A stretch of DNA of 11,390 bases. Source: a virus. Lineage: Duplodnaviria > Heunggongvirae > Uroviricota > Caudoviricetes. The notes under the pieces were generated by a model that saw only the letters and a program-made list of their open reading frames with translations, was not told the origin of the DNA and ran no database searches. Below are positions 3,086 through 10,122 of the stretch, in pieces. Location: IMG/VR virus record IMGVR_UViG_2690316028_000012, one strand, 5' to 3'. Made by a program: the position numbers and the translations under genes. Position 1 is the stretch's first letter; each line of letters opens with the position of its first letter.

Positions 3086-3919
3086 ATGAACATCGAAAAA
3101 AGCAGATTAATTTCTGAGGCCGCCCCTCATCTGAACGCCTATCAGGGCACAATTAACGGTAATGAATTTGCCGCAATTGTCCCGGTTATTCCTGGTCATA
3201 TCGGTGGGCGTGAAACCAATATTGTTAGCGCAAAAGCGTTACACAAAGCGTTGGGCGTGGGAAAAGACTTCTCTACATGGATCACTGATCGCATCTCTGA
3301 ATATGACTTCACCATTGGGCACGATTACTCAGTCCATAAAACAATTTCCCCAAATCTGGGGAAAAGCCCGAATGGCACGGCTTACAGCAAGATTAAACAG
3401 TCTGGCAGACCCGGCAAAGACTATCTGTTAAGTGTCGGAATGGCGAAAGAACTGGCGATGGTCGAACGCACCGAACAGGGCCGCGCTATCCGCCGTTATT
3501 TCATCCAGTGCGAGGAAGAATTACAGCGTAGCGTGCCTGAAATCGCCGCCCGCTATCGTCGCCAGCTAAAAGCCCGTATCGGTGCCGCCAACCTGTTTAA
3601 ACCGATGTGCGTAGCGCTGGAAAGCGCCCGCGCAGAACAGGGTAAACAGACGCAGGCTCGCCACTACAGCAACGAGAGCAACATGATCGCCCGTATCGTG
3701 CTGGGTGGCATGACGGCGAAGCAGTGGGCGCAGGCAAATGGCATTACTGGCGAACCACGGGACAGCATGAACGCAGCACAGCTTGAACACCTCGCCTATC
3801 TCGAAAGCACCAATATCACGTTAATTGATATGGGCATGGAATATGAGCAGCGCAAAGGAGAACTCACCCGCCTGTCGCAACGCTGGCTCGCTAAACGTCT
3901 GGAGGTAAACCATGCGTAA
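3086..3919 (+). CDS. Phage antirepressor-like protein with N-terminal AntA/AntB-type domain
   Basis: 277-aa ORF. N-terminal segment SAKALHKALGVGKDFSTWITDRISEYDFTIGHDY resembles the AntA/AntB antirepressor domain consensus as recalled; not searched. Confidence 0.65.
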   Translation: MNIEKSRLISEAAPHLNAYQGTINGNEFAAIVPVIPGHIGGRETNIVSAKALHKALGVGKDFSTWITDRISEYDFTIGHDYSVHKTISPNLGKSPNGTAYSKIKQSGRPGKDYLLSVGMAKELAMVERTEQGRAIRRYFIQCEEELQRSVPEIAARYRRQLKARIGAANLFKPMCVALESARAEQGKQTQARHYSNESNMIARIVLGGMTAKQWAQANGITGEPRDSMNAAQLEHLAYLESTNITLIDMGMEYEQRKGELTRLSQRWLAKRLEVNHA

Positions 3920-4094
3920 CCACAATCCGATGCCGGGAAGCCGTTACAAGGACAGTCACGGGGCTGTAGTGACCGTACAGCGCGTCGAGCATAACCGTGT
4001 GACCTTTTACCGCGAGGGCTATCAGTCGCCATGTGTTCAGCCTTTGGAGAGATTCGTTAATGAGTTCGTGGAGGTGCGCCGTGATACTGAATGA
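3912..4094 (+). CDS. Small hypothetical protein (possibly the DUF4222-like small prophage protein family)
   Basis: 60-aa ORF. Start overlaps the upstream stop in ATGCGTAA, with GGAGGT 5 nt upstream. The family assignment is from memory only. Confidence 0.5.
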   Translation: MRNHNPMPGSRYKDSHGAVVTVQRVEHNRVTFYREGYQSPCVQPLERFVNEFVEVRRDTE

Positions 4095-4381
4095 ACCTGC
4101 CGCCCAGAAAGAAGCCTTTAATCTGGCTGGCATGTTGTCAAAAGTTGACATCTGCAACCTTACAAAACCTGATATTGATACCGCAGCGCCCGGAGTTCCG
4201 TTACCAGTACGCGAGGCGCTTACCCTCAACAAAAAGATGGTGAGCCGTGCACAGGAAAAACTCTTAAAGGGTTACGGTTTTATCTGGTATGACCACCTAG
4301 CAGAGAAAAGCTGTTATAGTCCAAGCGTTGCTGCAAAATCAGCAACCGGGATTGGAACCCCGAACACACTAAGGGCGACAC

Positions 4382-4404
4382 AGACGCCGAAAGCGTCTTT
4401 TTTT
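4382..4404 (+). terminator. Candidate intrinsic terminator inside the operon
   Basis: Stem AGACGC (4382-4387) / GCGTCT (4393-4398), loop cgaaa, followed by a run of seven T to 4404. Confidence 0.5.
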
Positions 4405-4593
4405 GTGTCCGATCACCACGCACATCAAATCAGCGGCCTTGCCCGTACTGTATCTATGGTGGCGTTAGTGGGGCTACGTTCGCGTAGGCCGGTTTCCTTT
4501 GTGTCCGGTAGTTCCAACCCTGCTAACGTCACCGCCACTATTAAGATTGGAACCTTATGCGGTGACTCCTTAAACACAAAGGAGGCTGCCATA

Positions 4594-4785
4594 ATGGCTA
4601 CTACCCCAACCCAAAAACCATCATTTATCTGGTTAATCGCAGCAGTTCGCCGCGATATGCCGACAATTACCGCCAAAATTCACCATATCGCCGCAGAGAC
4701 TGAGCAGGAAGCCCGCCGCATTCTGGCGCGGGATCACGTTTGCTTTTTTGCCGGACGTATTCGCACAGGGGGCGCACATGCTTAA
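4594..4785 (+). CDS. Host cell division inhibitor Icd-like protein (63 aa)
   Basis: Strong RBS aaaggagg 8 nt upstream of ATG 4594. Product MATTPTQKPSFIWLIAAVRRD...EQEARRILARDHVCFFAGRI resembles Icd-like proteins as recalled. The tracker's 250-aa ORF 4033..4785 is the same frame running on upstream with no credible start. Confidence 0.6.
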   Translation: MATTPTQKPSFIWLIAAVRRDMPTITAKIHHIAAETEQEARRILARDHVCFFAGRIRTGGAHA

Positions 4786-4957
4786 TTACTTCCGTGTTGC
4801 AGGATGCGCCACCGCCCGGAGCGGCGAATTAGTCGAGTTCGTTTATATCGTTGACGCCCGCAGCGCGATCAGCGCCAAAGCTGAGGCGCTAAATCAGGCC
4901 AGAAATGAACGCCTTTCCCACATCCAGATTACCCGCATTCGTGAGGTGGCAGCATGA
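4778..4957 (+). CDS. Small hypothetical protein (59 aa from ATG 4778; tracker ORF begins at 4748)
   Basis: ATG 4778 overlaps the Icd-like stop (ATGCTTAA). Its own stop overlaps the next start (ATGA at 4954). Confidence 0.4.
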   Translation: MLNYFRVAGCATARSGELVEFVYIVDARSAISAKAEALNQARNERLSHIQITRIREVAA

Positions 4958-5217
4958 ACATAAATACCATCTACCGCCACCCGGCAGAGCTGGAAGCCGA
5001 AGCGATGCTATCTCGCAAAGAATCATACCCGGATGATTTTACGCTGGCAGACCGAACAGCAGAACGCATGACCCGCGCCCGCAATGGGCTGGATCACGTT
5101 ATGACCGATTTATTACCACTCCTCGAAGTTGAGCAAGCAGCCATCGCGTATTGCTGGCTGAGTAAAGTCCTGACGATTGTCGATATAGCCAGAATTGATG
5201 CGGAGGGCAGCGCATGA
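4954..5217 (+). CDS. Hypothetical protein (87 aa)
   Basis: ATGA start/stop overlap with genes on both sides, co-oriented in the operon. Confidence 0.5.
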   Translation: MNINTIYRHPAELEAEAMLSRKESYPDDFTLADRTAERMTRARNGLDHVMTDLLPLLEVEQAAIAYCWLSKVLTIVDIARIDAEGSA

Positions 5218-5840
5218 GCAACGCACCGACCATTAAATCGGGAAATGCCGACTTATTACACGCCGAAGCCACACCGCACGGCGTCAATATCATGACCCGC
5301 AATGATGCCGGGGGATATGAGCAGGTTGCTCTTATCAGCTACGAGAGCGCCGTGAACGGCCTTGACGCCGGAGAGTACGACGATAAGCCAGATATCGGAT
5401 ACGCCATTCATTTTGCCGTTGCTGATGGCGGGGCGCGTGGCTGGTTCGACTTCACCGCGCAGCATAACGTCACTATGTGGCGCTGGCTGATTGCTGCGAC
5501 GTTCATTTCTGAGATGAAGCGCGAAAACGGCACAACCACGGTAACTGAGTCTGACGGCACTTCATCGCAGGTGGCGATTTACTCCAATGGCACGGCGGGG
5601 ATTGTGGTTTACCCGTTCGCTGAACGTCTGGCGATGGCTAACAACATGGATGGCGCAATGGTTGAGCGCTACGGCATTGAGCAGGGAACAGCGAACGCCA
5701 TTGTTTTTTATCAGGCCATGATCGACACGGAGCGCGGCGAGTTGACCCCGTTTGGGCGTGAAACGCTTGCTGAACTTCACAACAGCTTTATAGCTGAACT
5801 GGATGAAAACGGCTGGCCTGAAATGCCGCTGGCGCACTGA
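5214..5840 (+). CDS. Hypothetical protein (208 aa)
   Basis: ATGA overlap with the upstream gene; long ORF with ordinary codon usage. No motif recognised. Confidence 0.6.
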   Translation: MSNAPTIKSGNADLLHAEATPHGVNIMTRNDAGGYEQVALISYESAVNGLDAGEYDDKPDIGYAIHFAVADGGARGWFDFTAQHNVTMWRWLIAATFISEMKRENGTTTVTESDGTSSQVAIYSNGTAGIVVYPFAERLAMANNMDGAMVERYGIEQGTANAIVFYQAMIDTERGELTPFGRETLAELHNSFIAELDENGWPEMPLAH

Positions 5841-5849
5841 GGGAGCGAC

Positions 5850-6191
5850 ATGATTACTAAAAATTTCCGACTGAATGCGCTGGCGAATAAGTATGCGTCG
5901 GCACTGTATAACCACATTACCTCCACCAGCGGCGGGGACTATTTCATGGTTGATGCGGACGGCCTCGCCGTCCGTGTGGAAATCGTCAATGGAGTAAAAG
6001 GCGTTCGCAGCCTGATCGATAGCTACACACTGGCAGCCATGAAAGTGTTCTACCCGCAGTGGGAAACCGTGGGGATCGAGCTTCTTGATCGTTGCGTCAC
6101 TAAGGACGGATTGACTGACGTCGGGCGCGAGATATGGCAAAGCATGATTAATGATATGGGCGCGACCGTGGCAGGAGGCAACCATGCGTAA
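5850..6191 (+). CDS. Hypothetical protein (113 aa)
   Basis: RBS gaggga upstream of ATG 5850. Stop overlaps the primase start in ATGCGTAA. Confidence 0.55.
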   Translation: MITKNFRLNALANKYASALYNHITSTSGGDYFMVDADGLAVRVEIVNGVKGVRSLIDSYTLAAMKVFYPQWETVGIELLDRCVTKDGLTDVGREIWQSMINDMGATVAGGNHA

Positions 6192-8949
6192 TATCGACCT
6201 TATCCGCGAAGTGACCAGCGCCGCAGCAGGGCGCTGGCCTTATGTGCTGGCTGGATTGTCTATCGACGTGCCTGATTCATCGCGCCGCCATTCTCCATGC
6301 CCTGCATGTGGTGGAAAAGACCGTTTCAGATTCGACGACAACGGGCGCGGTAGCTTTATCTGCAACCAGTGTGGCGCTGGTGACGGGCTGGATTTAATCA
6401 AGCGGGTTAACAACTGCGACACTACGGAGGCGGCACAGCTTGCCGCTGACGTGCTGGGTATTGATTACCAGGCAGCGCAAACCGACCCGGTGGCAGCGAG
6501 CCATAGAAGAGAGCAACTGGAAGCTGACCGCCAGCAGCGTGAGCAGGAGCGCCAGAAACAGGCAGCAGAGGACGCAGAGCAGCGAAGGGCTACGTTTGCC
6601 CATCTGTATGCCGGAATGCGCCAGAGTGCCACACAGGGCGAATCTGATTACCTGCAATCAAAAGGGCTGACCGGGTTTAACTATCCGGTTATGCCGGATG
6701 GTTCGTTATTGCTGGAGCTGGTGGACGAATCCGGCGCAGTGGCAGCAGCGCAAACCATTACACCGCAGGGAGAGAAGCGACTCCTGACAGGTTCAGCAAA
6801 GCGCGGGGCATATCACGCCGTAAACGCGCCAGAATCGCCGCAGAGCGTTTTAATTGCCGAGGGGCTGGCAACCGCTTTATCAGTCCACCTGATGCGCCCT
6901 GACGCGCTGACAGTGTGCGCCATTGATGCGGGCAACCTGCTACCCGTTGCCGAAGTGATGCGCCGGATATATCCAGCCACGCAGATTATCATTGCCGCAG
7001 ATAACGACCACCAGCAGGACGAACAGGCGAACACGGGCAAAGATGCCGCAGAGAAAGCCGCCTTATCCGTGGCTGGCTGGGTGGCACTGCCGCCGACAGA
7101 CTACAAAGCCGACTGGGACGACTACCGCCAGCAAAACGGGCTGGAAGTCGCTACGGCTGCGTTTAACGATTCGATGTACCAGATTCAAGGGGAAGCCGTG
7201 AAACCGCGATTGCAAGCCATTGAGGGCGGTAAAACTGACCATCCAGAGAAAGATCCACTAAAACCCCACATTGAGAGCCGCAAAGATGGCGTTTTCTGGG
7301 TAACGCCGAAGGTGGACAAGGAAAGCGGGGAGATCGTCAACGCTGAAAGCTGGTTATGTTCCCCGTTGGAGGTTATCGGCACGGGACGCGACGACAAAGA
7401 TCAGTATCTTATTATCTCATGGCTGGCATTCGGTGCAGGCATACCGACAACAGCGGCTATCCCGCTGGCTGATATTGGCGAGCGTGAAGGCTGGCGCACC
7501 CTGAAAGCTGGTGGCGTCAACGTCACAACGAAAAACAGCCTACGGGCGATTCTTGCCGACTGGTTACAGCGAAGCGGCTCGCGTGAATTGTGGCGCGTTG
7601 CTCATGCTACAGGCTGGCAGTGCGGGGCATACATCATGCCGGACGGGGAAATCATCGGCACACCTGAGCGGCCTGTTTTGTTCAGCGGGCGCAGTTCAGC
7701 CGCTGCCGGGTATACCGTAGCAGGAACGTCGGAAAGCTGGCGTAACAGTGTTGCGCGGCTGGCATACGGTAATTACGCGATGATGACAGGCATCGCCGCA
7801 GCACTGGCAGCGCCATTAATCGGGGTGGCAGATCGTGACGGATTCGGGATTCATTTTTATGAGCAATCGAGCGCCGGGAAAACAACCACGCAGAACGTGG
7901 CGAGCAGTCTATACGGCAACCCTGATGCCTTGCGCCTGACGTGGTACGGGACGGCGCTGGGGCTGATAAACGAGGCCGCCGCCCACAATGACGGGCTGAT
8001 GCCACTGGATGAAGTCGGACAGGGCGCTGACCCGATAAGCGTTTCTCAGTCTGCCTATGCCCTGTTTAACGGCGTGGGGAAATTGCAGGGAGCAAAGGAA
8101 GGAGGCAACCGGGATCTGAAACGCTGGCGCACCGTGGCAATCAGCACCGGGGAAGTGGACTTAGAAACCTTCATCGCCACCGCCGGACGCAAGACCAAAG
8201 CCGGGCAACTGGTGCGCTTGCTGAATATCCCGTTAAGTAAGGCGGTGCGCTTTCATGAACACCAGACAGGGAAAGAACACGCCGACGCGCTGAAAGATGC
8301 TTATCAGCACCATCATGGCGCTGCCGGGAGGGAGTGGATCAGATGGCTTTCAGACCACCAGCAACAGGCGATTGATGTCGTTCGTGAGTGTGAAGCCCGC
8401 TGGCGCAGTCTAATCCCTGCCGACTATGGGGAACAGGTTCACCGTGTAGGGGCAAGATTTGCCATTCTGGAGGCCGCTTTACTGATGGGTGGCGTGGTTA
8501 CTGGCTGGGATGCTCAAACGTGCCGGGATGCGATACAGCACGCCTATAACGCATGGCTAAAAGAGTTCGGCACGGGGAACAAAGAGCACCAGCAGATCAT
8601 CGAGCAGGCGGAGGCATTTTTAAATGCCTATGGCCTGAGTCGATTCGCGCCGCTGCCTTACGACCCCGCCAGCCTGCCGATTCATAATCTGGCTGGATAC
8701 AGGCAGCGCGGAAATCATGACGATTCACCGATAACGTTTTACACGTTCCCCGACACTTTCGATAAGGATATTGCTAAGGGGTTTAACAGGCAGCAGGTGG
8801 CCCGCGTCCTGAAAGAATCGGGGATGCTTACCCCTTCGGCAGACGGAAAAAAATTTCAGAGGAAAAGCCCGCGCATTCAGGGGAGGCAGATTAACGTTTA
8901 CGTTTTGCAATTCCTGCCGGATGGGGAGGAAAGCCAGCCAGAGCAATAA
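6184..8949 (+). CDS. Replication primase-helicase (P4 alpha-like: zinc-ribbon + TOPRIM primase + DUF927/D5-type NTPase)
   Basis: Start placed at ATG 6184 (AGGAGG 5 nt upstream) rather than the tracker's 6151. C4 zinc ribbon CPACGGKDRFRF...FICNQCG. TOPRIM motifs LIAEGLATALS and IIIAADNDHQ. P-loop-like YEQSSAGKTT and Walker-B-like LMPLDEVG in the C-terminal half. Confidence 0.9.
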   Translation: MRNIDLIREVTSAAAGRWPYVLAGLSIDVPDSSRRHSPCPACGGKDRFRFDDNGRGSFICNQCGAGDGLDLIKRVNNCDTTEAAQLAADVLGIDYQAAQTDPVAASHRREQLEADRQQREQERQKQAAEDAEQRRATFAHLYAGMRQSATQGESDYLQSKGLTGFNYPVMPDGSLLLELVDESGAVAAAQTITPQGEKRLLTGSAKRGAYHAVNAPESPQSVLIAEGLATALSVHLMRPDALTVCAIDAGNLLPVAEVMRRIYPATQIIIAADNDHQQDEQANTGKDAAEKAALSVAGWVALPPTDYKADWDDYRQQNGLEVATAAFNDSMYQIQGEAVKPRLQAIEGGKTDHPEKDPLKPHIESRKDGVFWVTPKVDKESGEIVNAESWLCSPLEVIGTGRDDKDQYLIISWLAFGAGIPTTAAIPLADIGEREGWRTLKAGGVNVTTKNSLRAILADWLQRSGSRELWRVAHATGWQCGAYIMPDGEIIGTPERPVLFSGRSSAAAGYTVAGTSESWRNSVARLAYGNYAMMTGIAAALAAPLIGVADRDGFGIHFYEQSSAGKTTTQNVASSLYGNPDALRLTWYGTALGLINEAAAHNDGLMPLDEVGQGADPISVSQSAYALFNGVGKLQGAKEGGNRDLKRWRTVAISTGEVDLETFIATAGRKTKAGQLVRLLNIPLSKAVRFHEHQTGKEHADALKDAYQHHHGAAGREWIRWLSDHQQQAIDVVRECEARWRSLIPADYGEQVHRVGARFAILEAALLMGGVVTGWDAQTCRDAIQHAYNAWLKEFGTGNKEHQQIIEQAEAFLNAYGLSRFAPLPYDPASLPIHNLAGYRQRGNHDDSPITFYTFPDTFDKDIAKGFNRQQVARVLKESGMLTPSADGKKFQRKSPRIQGRQINVYVLQFLPDGEESQPEQ

Positions 8950-8975
8950 TCTTTTTCACGTGCGAGGTTTTTTGT

Positions 8976-9233
8976 GGTGGTTCAGGTGGTTCAGGTGGTT
9001 CAGTAAGTAATTGTTATTGATTTATAATGTTTTTTTGTAAGAAATTGAACCACCACTGAACCACCAAACGGGTATTTTGAACCACCAGAGAGAAACGGAT
9101 TATTTTCACTGGCTGGCAGTGAACCACCAAGAAGGGCGACTGAACCACCAGATAAATTTAAAAGGTGGTTCAGCAAAACCCAGAGTTGGCGCGGCCTAGA
9201 GGGGTACTGAACCACTGAACCACCTGAACCACC
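8976..9233. repeat. Iteron cluster (GGTGGTTCAG / CTGAACCACC, ~12 copies in both orientations) flanking an AT-rich segment; probable replication origin
   Basis: Forward copies at 8976, 8985, 8994 (tandem, 9-bp period) and 9164. Reverse copies at 9046, 9056, 9078, 9120, 9140, 9207 (partial), 9216, 9225. AT-rich stretch at 9004-9046. Sits immediately 3' of the primase gene. Confidence 0.8.
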
Positions 9234-9337
9234 AACTTTTTTGTTTATATACCAATAAATCTGGCGAAGGTGTCCCACAATAAGACGGAGCCGGGTAATC
9301 TTCATTAGCAAAACTAATAATTCGAGGTATTCGCAAA

Positions 9338-9799
9338 ATGACAGCACAGATATCAGCCTACGGGCGGCTGGTGGCAGATCCCCAGACCAGAACGACAAAC
9401 AGCGGCGGCAGCATGGCAATGGGACGGTTAGCGGTGGCACTGCCCTGCCATGCAGCAGAGGGCGGAGAGGTTACTTTCTGGCTGGGCGTGGTGGCATTCG
9501 GCAAACAGGCCGACGCACTGGCAGGGCACGTTAAAGGCGATTTAGTCAGTGTTGCCGGAGCGATGCAGATCAATCAGTGGACGGGCAAGGATGGCGGTAC
9601 ACAGCAAGGTTATCAGGTAGTAGCCGACAGTGTGATCAGCGCCAGAACGGTACGCCCCGGCGGGAAGCGGGCCGAATCAGTCAAAGCAAGCGGAGCCAGC
9701 AGAGGCCACGCAACACAATCCGCGCCGGGATGGGAGTTATATAACACCCCTGATGATTTTGACCAGCGCCCGCCGTTTGATGATGAAGATCCATTCTGA
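9338..9799 (+). CDS. ssb: Single-stranded DNA-binding protein (SSB)
   Basis: 153-aa ORF. OB-fold region aligns by eye with E. coli SSB (GRLVADPQTRTTNSGG; VVAFGKQADALAGHVKGDLVSVAGAMQINQWTGKDGG). Acidic C-terminal tail ends DDEDPF (canonical SSB tail is DDDIPF). Confidence 0.8.
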   Translation: MTAQISAYGRLVADPQTRTTNSGGSMAMGRLAVALPCHAAEGGEVTFWLGVVAFGKQADALAGHVKGDLVSVAGAMQINQWTGKDGGTQQGYQVVADSVISARTVRPGGKRAESVKASGASRGHATQSAPGWELYNTPDDFDQRPPFDDEDPF

Positions 9800-9810
9800 G
9801 GGGGATACAC

Positions 9811-10122
9811 ATGGTAAACGACAGGAAAGCCGAGGAACTGGAAGCAAAGGGGCTGTATCGCAGGGCAGCTACACGCTGGCAGGAAGTCATGATGATTTGT
9901 GCTGAGGACGATGATCGGGAATGGGTAAAGCAGCGACGTGATACGTGTCTGACGAACGTGAAGCGCCCGCCAGTGAAAACCGATGATTACGGCGATCTGC
10001 ATAAAGCAGTCACTGAGACACAACACCGCATGGGGATAGCGCAACCAAACGGCAACGCCTTCCGATTAAACGGTGGTAAGAAGCAACGACAGGCCACCAG
10101 CGGGGGCGACAGTTCGCAGTAA
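9811..10122 (+). CDS. PerC-family transcriptional regulator-like protein
   Basis: 103-aa ORF. N-terminus KAEELEAKGLYRRAATRWQEVMM matches the PerC/Pch family signature as recalled. RBS gaggggga upstream. Confidence 0.7.
   Translation: MVNDRKAEELEAKGLYRRAATRWQEVMMICAEDDDREWVKQRRDTCLTNVKRPPVKTDDYGDLHKAVTETQHRMGIAQPNGNAFRLNGGKKQRQATSGGDSSQ

Follow-up and report, generated by a model that had tools for sequence, protein, structure and literature searches.

Cnr-like proteins as candidate modulators of the primase in a probably C4/Icd-gated, translationally coupled operon of a Gram-negative phage satellite

Introduction

The Enterobacterales very commonly harbour Gram-negative phage-inducible chromosomal islands (PICIs) and P4-like satellites, which are being engineered as delivery vehicles; beyond the Cnr protein of P4, little is known about how such satellites control their own replication. 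Here we analyse four small open reading frames (ORF1 to ORF4) lying directly upstream of a primase gene, between positions 4778 and 6191 of an 11,390-nucleotide stretch of viral DNA (IMG/VR record IMGVR_UViG_2690316028_000012, Caudoviricetes). This whole stretch is referred to below as the window.

The cnr gene controls the plasmid copy number of P4, and 90% of P4-like elements have a member of its family between epsilon and alpha (PMC8628076). The P4 gene order runs ORF88 (an alpA/vis-type excisionase-regulator), the cI/CI RNA region, epsilon, ORF151, ORF106 (DUF5375) and the alpha primase; other P4-like elements carry alpA, Icd/ash, an ORF of 73-87 amino acids (aa), DUF5375 and, where annotated, the primase. 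Because of that published position and of these gene orders, ORF106/DUF5375 is presumably cnr. Terzano et al. in 1994 and Ziegelin et al. in 1997 are said to have found that Cnr binds the alpha protein and stimulates its binding to the origin.

The layout of C4-type RNA and icd seen in the window is the architecture of the immI operon of P1 and P7 and of the CI immunity of P4. The C4/icd mechanism is reportedly known from P1 through the work of Biere, Citron and Schuster in 1992. In Gram-negative PICIs, C4 and isrK matches have already been noted and the origin lies downstream of pri (PMC10111431). EcCIMP1, a PICI of Escherichia coli MP1, has been experimentally mobilised by phage Kapi1; homologs of the ORFs studied here were left as hypothetical proteins in that element and none was mutated (PMC11773190).

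An earlier reading of the window, made from the letters and their translations alone (the sequence-only reading), had treated the four ORFs as translationally coupled genes without a placeable motif, co-transcribed with the primase. It offered helper interference, replication accessory function or host takeover as roles, and concluded that nothing in the sequence says which. We propose that ORF3 and ORF4 may be Cnr-like modulators of the primase/initiator, expressed from a coupled replication operon gated by C4 RNA and Icd. The proposal is made by analogy with P4 Cnr, and we put its probability at about 0.5.

Results

Relationship of ORF3 and ORF4 to P4 Cnr

ORF3 (5214-5840; like all genes listed here, on the plus strand) encodes 208 aa and belongs to phrog_1515 (E value 2e-44); ORF4 (5850-6191) encodes 113 aa and belongs to phrog_37628 (E 7e-49). 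In profile-profile comparisons, residues 82-197 of ORF3 aligned with residues 7-102 of Cnr at 95.7% probability (E 8.8e-9) when the DUF5375 alignment was used, and at 95.1% in a second run. The ORF3 family scored 88.7% (E 2.5e-6) against P4 ORF106 alone, and its C-terminal domain 97.5-97.9% (E 5e-12 to 5e-13) against a merged profile of Cnr, phrog_1737 and g11, the last being a family of short ORF3-like proteins. As a control, about 40 families were compared all-against-all: Cnr exceeded 50% with ORF3 and phrog_1737 only. Proteins of the phrog_1737 type align to the ORF3 C-terminal domain at 90%. A further point of resemblance is a C-terminal His, found in 54/56 and 53/53 ORF3 sequences and in 14/14 Cnr sequences, and preceded by a Pro-containing tail in ORF3 and in P4-type Cnr proteins. 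The profile-profile scores and the shared terminal residue therefore indicate that ORF3 carries a Cnr-like domain; judged by these alignments, its C-terminal half is a remote homolog of Cnr.

The link extends, at a greater distance, to ORF4. Together with the related family g14, ORF4 aligned to the ORF3 C-terminal domain at 78-84% (E about 1e-5, hhalign). AlphaFold2 models of ORF3 and ORF4 reached a predicted local distance difference test score (pLDDT) of 90-93, that of ORF4 being 93.5. ORF3 is predicted to consist of an N-terminal beta/alpha domain (residues ~15-74) and the Cnr-like domain (~82-199) with a beta insertion (107-132), followed by a flexible tail, modelled with low confidence, that ends in the conserved His. 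The ORF4 model is small and helical and includes a beta hairpin. Residues 82-199 of ORF3 and the whole of ORF4 share one order of elements (long helix, beta hairpin or sheet, two helices, mini-hairpin, last helix), the mini-hairpin sitting in both at an L-[ST]-x-x-G motif; the order is identical in these two independent high-confidence models. ORF4 ends in His-Ala or Gln and, with 113 aa, is close in size to Cnr (106 aa). On this evidence ORF4 probably belongs, as a more divergent member, to a Cnr-like superfamily, and it stands in Cnr's place. Direct homology between ORF4 and Cnr was considered and dropped, the profile-profile probability being about 3%.

None of this is visible in standard libraries, and to that extent the absence of a placeable motif was correctly noted: the four ORFs have no match in Pfam, NCBIfam, PADLOC or PDB sequences, the last of which were queried with single sequences and with profiles. 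For ORF3 and ORF4 there was no Pfam match even at E values up to 10, DUF5375 (PF17345) included, which P4 ORF106 matches with 209 bits; 45 diverse ORF3 relatives gave 0 Pfam matches. The predicted fold of ORF3, confident as it is, matched no solved structure, and that of ORF4 matched nothing in PDB or, with Foldseek, in BFVD. The libraries label phrog_1515, phrog_37628 and phrog_1737 as "unknown function" and link them neither to one another nor to DUF5375. A third homolog search, made with a profile, yielded just 8 proteins. Of the IMG/VR loci obtained with P4 Cnr as the seed, nearly all were identical, which made them of no use for diversity.

Association with the primase gene

The last cistron of the operon (6184-8949) encodes a primase/initiator of 921 aa with Zn ribbon, Toprim and DUF927 domains (PF08273, PF13362, PF06048). 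We collected 80 IMG/VR loci seeded on its N-terminal domain, at 47-95% identity, and recorded which gene ended within 30 nt of the primase start. This was an ORF4-family gene in 47 loci and an ORF3-family gene in 22, the remaining 11 having another gene or nothing; a member of one or the other family thus directly precedes the primase in 69/80 (86%). The ATGCGTAA overlap that joins ORF4 to the primase in the window recurs in 21 of 30 primase-bearing relative loci, across genera and down to 48% ORF4 identity. In a set of 83 satellites, defined as loci with both icd and this type of primase, ORF3 (59/83) and ORF4 (55/83) always stand last in the array of small genes. Some elements have ORF3 only, some ORF4 only, many both, and some a third paralog, a pattern to be expected of related functions that overlap in part and are linked to the primase gene. 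The third paralog, g14 (about 123 aa; 77% to ORF4 by hhalign), lies between ORF4 and the primase in EcCIMP1, in two further loci of our set and in several IMG/VR loci.

Directly after the primase stop codon begins a field (8975-9234) with at least 12 copies, in both orientations, of the 10-nt iteron GGTGGTTCAG. Its repeats and position make it a likely origin of replication.

Taken with the homology to Cnr, this adjacency goes further than the view that the sequence does not discriminate among roles: of those offered, replication accessory is the one that gains support, and it does so for ORF3 and ORF4. The sequence-only reading had named confident assignment to a known replication accessory protein as a result that would count against it; what was found goes part of the way, as remote homology of a single ORF.

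Several observations weigh against a Cnr-like role. ORF4 has no direct similarity to Cnr in profile-profile comparison (2.8-3%, E 0.016-0.19); it is connected to Cnr only by way of ORF3, with moderate strength. The identification of ORF106 as cnr is our assumption, drawn in part from P4-like gene orders and the published position of cnr. Cnr is said, after Ziegelin et al. in 1997, to act on the C-terminal DNA-binding domain of alpha, where Cnr-resistant alpha mutations reportedly map, and the primase of the window is 34% identical to alpha over its N-terminal 330 aa, the similarity being limited to that part. ORF4 is also found beside primases whose C-terminal halves differ, and in 11 of the 80 loci neither family adjoins the primase. 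Finally, the ORF3-ORF4 pair occurs without a primase downstream in about 23 prophage loci, among antirepressor and KilA-N genes, and ORF3 homologs are present in 36 phage genomes with unrelated replication modules: phiP27 has its ORF3 homolog with DnaC plus helicase, and CharmingMan, another carrier, showed no similarity to the primase.

The primase itself is a mosaic, with residues 1-350 (Zn ribbon and Toprim) common to P4 alpha and relatives and a breakpoint near residue 350. Four loci have C-terminal halves unlike the one found here, one of them annotated as "phage/plasmid primase, P4 family". The idea that ORF3-bearing phages share the primase type of the window was considered and rejected: it is false for phiP27 and CharmingMan, and a Klebsiella phage matches in the Zn ribbon only. 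Because the family is found with other primase C-terminal halves and with unrelated phage replication genes, it is not restricted to one type of initiator.

The phage loci raise another explanation, in which ORF3-ORF4 would be a phage-derived early accessory module acting on the helper phage or the host rather than on the satellite's own replication; it might be an antirepressor partner, derepress the helper or confer superinfection immunity, and its position next to the primase would reflect operon packing only. Of 50 species-level genome loci with an ORF4 relative, about half are satellites ordered (ORF3)-ORF4-primase and the other half prophages of Xenorhabdus, Yersinia and others. The typical prophage order is ORF6N antirepressor, ORF3, ORF4 and an ORF of about 75 aa, with no primase downstream, and in the one prophage locus scanned KilA-N follows. 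Xenorhabdus, Yersinia, Kosakonia and other prophages hold the pair between ORF6N and KilA-N, near int. In phages ORF3 belongs to the early-left region, where its neighbours are antirepressor or serine-protease genes; the replication modules of these phages are unrelated to the primase studied here. Moreover, EcCIMP1 confers an unexplained superinfection immunity and has no known defence system (PMC11773190). This explanation has to contend with the 95.7% score between ORF3 and Cnr, with the abutment of an ORF3- or ORF4-family gene on the primase in 86% of relatives, with the maintenance of the ATGCGTAA overlap at the nucleotide level across genera and with the lack of any PADLOC match. We regard it as possible but unlikely.

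A chain of six coupled cistrons

The coordinates and lengths first given for the four ORFs are exact: ORF1 (59 aa) spans 4778-4957 and ORF2 (87 aa) 4954-5217, ahead of ORF3 and ORF4. Their chaining by overlapping start and stop codons holds at three junctions, namely ATGA between ORF1 and ORF2, ATGA between ORF2 and ORF3, and ATGCGTAA between ORF4 and the primase ATG at 6184. The ORF3/ORF4 junction, supposed to be of the same kind, is a 9-nt spacer, TGAGGGAGCGACATG, with a Shine-Dalgarno site immediately 3' of the stop codon; across relatives this junction is always a Shine-Dalgarno spacer of 9-12 nt. A further cistron had been overlooked. The stop codon of an Icd-like gene at 4594-4785 overlaps the ORF1 start as ATGCTTAA, so that the coupled chain starts one gene earlier and comprises six cistrons: icd, ORF1, ORF2, ORF3, ORF4 and the primase. 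Every start is preceded, at 5-9 nt, by a Shine-Dalgarno sequence of the GGAGG/GGGAG type. Co-transcription with the primase, as proposed before, agrees with this tight coupling and with the lack of any promoter-like or terminator-like site on the plus strand between 4398 and 6679.

The four ORFs are real genes. Of the interval, 99.4% lies within ATG-initiated frames of 50 aa or more, whereas 2000 random sequences with the same dinucleotide content averaged 37% (maximum 94%; 90% or more in 2/2000). Homolog lengths are constant across many genera (59, 87, about 200-210 and 112-118 aa), and pairwise ratios of nonsynonymous to synonymous substitution rates (dN/dS) of about 0.1-0.4, at dS 0.4-1.5, denote purifying selection on all four; for ORF4 they range from 0.07 to 0.34. 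Values flagged with internal stops for some ORF3 homologs were artefacts of N-terminal extrapolation and were disregarded. The conservation on which the status of the ORFs had been made to depend is therefore present, in lengths as in dN/dS. A 207-aa antisense frame (5562-6185, minus strand) running across ORF3 and ORF4 was rejected as a gene, diverged relatives having 1-4 stops in it.

Homologs of these proteins bear spurious, propagated database names: "HAD family hydrolase" for ORF1, "nicotinic acetylcholine receptor subunit beta" for ORF2, [quoted passage not shown] for ORF3 and "ubiquinol-cytochrome C reductase" for an extra 104-aa ORF of some relatives. Such names, and the lack of a curated family covering the ORFs, are what could be cited for the idea that they are chance open frames or annotation artefacts. 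That idea is already refuted by the conservation data, and the excess of coverage over random sequence, the Shine-Dalgarno sites, the pLDDT of 90-93 and the unconserved antisense frame speak against it as well.

A C4 RNA/Icd element at the head of the chain

Upstream of ORF1 lies an RNA control element that had also escaped notice. A region matching c4-a1b1 target sites and isrK-like RNA (4314-4403; RF03163, 53.6 bits, and RF01394, 74.6 bits, both above gathering) contains a terminator-like site at 4382-4398 and makes up the upstream portion, targets and terminator, of the antisense-RNA immunity element. It is followed by an antisense RNA of the C4/CI type at 4452-4539 (RF01695, full length, 82.1 bits against a gathering threshold of 45, E 2.5e-15), and by a downstream target region spanning 4545-4585. 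In the latter, the a2 target GATTGGAACC (4545-4554) is a direct repeat of 4350-4359 and, in both copies, is complementary to C4 positions 4511-4520. The b2 target ACACAAAGGA (4574-4583) overlaps the AAGGAGG Shine-Dalgarno sequence of the Icd-like cistron and is complementary at 10/10 positions to the C4 loop TCCTTTGTGT (4495-4504). The Icd-like leader cistron encodes 63 aa, matches NF033153 with 73.1 bits (cut-off 25) and has a dN/dS of 0.08-0.38.

Annotation pipelines give a 250-aa frame at 4033-4785, named "ash family protein" or long "Icd-like protein", which overlies the isrK, c4-a1b1 and C4 RNA genes. Within it, the match to the Icd-like model is confined to the final 63 codons, preceded by a Shine-Dalgarno sequence of their own. 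The upstream part of the frame is probably RNA-coding and not protein-coding.

ORF1 and ORF2, a variable pair

ORF1 and ORF2 do not belong with ORF3 and ORF4 in a single conserved block: they are variable cassettes seen in satellites only, whereas the ORF3-ORF4 module occurs also in prophages without this primase. Neither has a match in 50,697 phage genomes, nor in Pfam, NCBIfam, PHROGs, PADLOC or PDB sequences, profile search included. Their lengths are strictly kept, ORF1 at exactly 59 aa even where identity falls to 35% (dN/dS 0.15-0.64) and ORF2 at exactly 87 aa (dN/dS 0.14-0.40). ORF1 is present in 28 and ORF2 in 32 of the 83 satellites, and the tally of listed architectures shows an ORF2-like gene (ORF2, g13 or g15) after ORF1 in 23 of the 28 ORF1 loci; ORF2 aligns to g15 at 94%. 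The extra 104-aa ORF stands between the two in many E. coli relatives.

A separate family, g18 (152 aa), looks like a fusion of the two. Its residues 1-57 align to ORF1 (57-72%), the motif ERRLSNIQVTSI against NERLSHIQITRI included, and its residues 70-145 to ORF2 (95%). Because some relatives thus have them as one protein, ORF1 and ORF2 are suggested to act together; they are probably an exchangeable, satellite-only pair working as one unit. The loci with g18 also have the short ORF3-like protein g11 (122-138 aa), directly abutting the primase.

Several candidate identities for these ORFs were discarded. P4 epsilon (PF25738), the helper derepression protein whose gene fills the equivalent region of P4, was not matched by ORF1 or ORF2 in Pfam and was absent from the best hhalign partners, the check covering the 30 best family pairs and the best ORF1 and ORF2 partners of the all-against-all comparison. 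The same comparison showed no link to P4 ORF151 or to the 73-87-aa ORF of P4-like elements.

Might the pair be a toxin-antitoxin system, or another two-gene defence or addiction module? Two small genes that overlap by ATGA and occupy a variable slot within a mobile element would suit such a role. The union of both domains in a single polypeptide, g18, would be unusual for it, the pair sits inside a presumably repressed lytic operon without a promoter of its own, and PADLOC, Pfam, NCBIfam, PHROGs and the profile search of PDB sequences returned no match. We consider this identity very improbable.

The variability of the interval invites a more general alternative. Among the 83 satellites, the stretch from icd to the primase shows 42 gene orders and at least 35 families of small ORFs, always tightly packed and with their relative order conserved. 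One could thus imagine that the four ORFs are unrelated, interchangeable cargo whose translation relays ribosomes from icd to the primase against polarity, the protein functions having no link to replication. The low frequencies of ORF1 and ORF2 would agree with this, as would six loci in which icd stands almost directly before the primase. A mere relay would, on the other hand, not require purifying selection on all four as proteins, the much stronger conservation and constant last position of ORF3 and ORF4, or the paralogy of these two with each other and with Cnr. It appears quite improbable.

The element and its surroundings

EcCIMP1 shows the same layout and homologous genes, which makes the window a Gram-negative PICI of this type. 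Judged by the published features of PICIs (PMC10111431), int, alpA and the primase share one orientation, the candidate origin follows pri, structural and lysis genes are lacking, and the size is about 10-15 kb, the window stopping short of the right end of the element. Identities with EcCIMP1 are 97% for ORF4, 64% for ORF3, 62% for ORF2 and 78% for the primase. The same gene order adjoins tRNA-Thr/proA in E. coli relatives, EcCIMP1 among them.

The window opens with the integrase gene (1-1260), followed by an int-alpA RNA motif (1269-1335; RF02996, 60.6 bits) and a 321-aa ORF. This ORF is poorly conserved among relatives, its sole PADLOC match being weak (PDC-S31, E 0.002), and int and alpA seem to be separated here (1269-2321) by a variable cargo slot. 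Next come an alpA-like helix-turn-helix gene (2436-2639), a 144-aa ORF, an AntA/AntB antirepressor gene (3086-3919) and, before the RNA region, a DUF4222 gene. Beyond the candidate origin, 9338-10122 holds ORFs for a protein resembling single-stranded DNA-binding protein (153 aa) and for a PerC-family protein (103 aa). The latter is 78% identical to EcCIMP1_025, reported to repress expression of the LEE (locus of enterocyte effacement).

Some database records look misassigned. Satellite or prophage sequences of enterobacterial appearance are filed under Pseudomonas lundensis, Chryseobacterium and a Paenochrobactrum metagenome-assembled genome, and OM284015.1 ("Elizabethkingia phage EKP1") looks enterobacterial as well; contamination or mislabelling of such records is probable.

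Discussion

The interval studied here would form the central part of the early replication operon in a satellite of the EcCIMP1 type. Under the reading that ORF3 and ORF4 are Cnr-like modulators, transcription arriving from the alpA side would meet an immunity element of the P1/P4 type, in which the C4/CI loop would pair with the ribosome-binding site of icd. Since the cistrons are joined by start/stop overlaps or by the 9-nt Shine-Dalgarno spacer, a block of icd translation would shut down the entire chain, both by loss of coupling and by polarity. Lifting the block would yield the six products jointly, their rates of synthesis being linked by the coupling. ORF3 and ORF4 might then bind the primase/initiator and, by analogy with P4 Cnr, tune origin firing at the iterons and copy number, with the conserved C-terminal P-x-x-His tail serving as a docking element.

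A wider version of this proposal can be formulated, which we hold to be possible but on balance doubtful. In it, the ORF3 C-terminal domain, ORF4, g14, phrog_1737 and P4 Cnr would form a so far unrecognised superfamily of small initiator modulators, at work in P4-like satellites and Gram-negative PICIs as well as in some temperate phages; the tandem paralogs would assemble as a hetero-complex on the primase-helicase, the docking of the flexible, invariant P-x-x-His tail setting origin firing; and ORF1 with ORF2 would be a new two-part, satellite-only factor, for instance for sensing the helper phage or interfering with it.

Were the link to Cnr to hold, thousands of "hypothetical" proteins (phrog_1515, phrog_37628, phrog_1737) would become candidates for the control of PICI copy number, and the His tail a testable candidate for a docking motif. 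A whole chain hanging on a C4/Icd antisense switch would, in turn, suggest how the replication of an integrated PICI stays silent. The present work also corrects misleading database names.

The closest comparisons can be drawn at three levels. As an element, the window shares with Gram-negative PICIs of the EcCICFT073 type the division into four zones, Integration, Bro, Replication and Late (PMC10111431). With EcCIMP1 it shares the gene order, homologs of ORF2 to ORF4 upstream of the primase, the PerC gene and, as judged from relatives, the integration site. EcCIMP1 differs in lacking ORF1, in carrying other small ORFs and in having, after ORF4 and before the primase, a third paralog of the ORF4 kind (123 aa).

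At the level of control, the resemblance is to P1/P7 immI and P4 CI: a C4-family RNA that would be processed from the very transcript it controls, duplicated a/b targets with one set placed over the icd ribosome-binding site, and an Icd-like leader cistron translationally coupled to the genes that follow. In P1/P7 immI an antirepressor gene lies downstream of icd, whereas here this place is taken by small accessory genes and the primase, and the AntA/B gene precedes the RNA element.

At the level of the proteins, the comparison is with P4 Cnr. ORF3 is twice as long as Cnr, having an additional N-terminal domain and a beta insertion; two tandem members of the family, or three in some relatives, stand where P4 has one; the primase resembles alpha only over its own N-terminal third; and the ORF3/ORF4 family extends to prophages without this primase. 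In both systems, nevertheless, the gene for a small protein lies immediately upstream of a gene for a Zn-ribbon/Toprim primase-initiator, in an operon that follows alpA/vis and a CI (C4-type) immunity RNA region. ORF4 shares the size and position of Cnr, and residues 82-197 of ORF3 cover almost the whole of it, with a conserved C-terminal His in both families.

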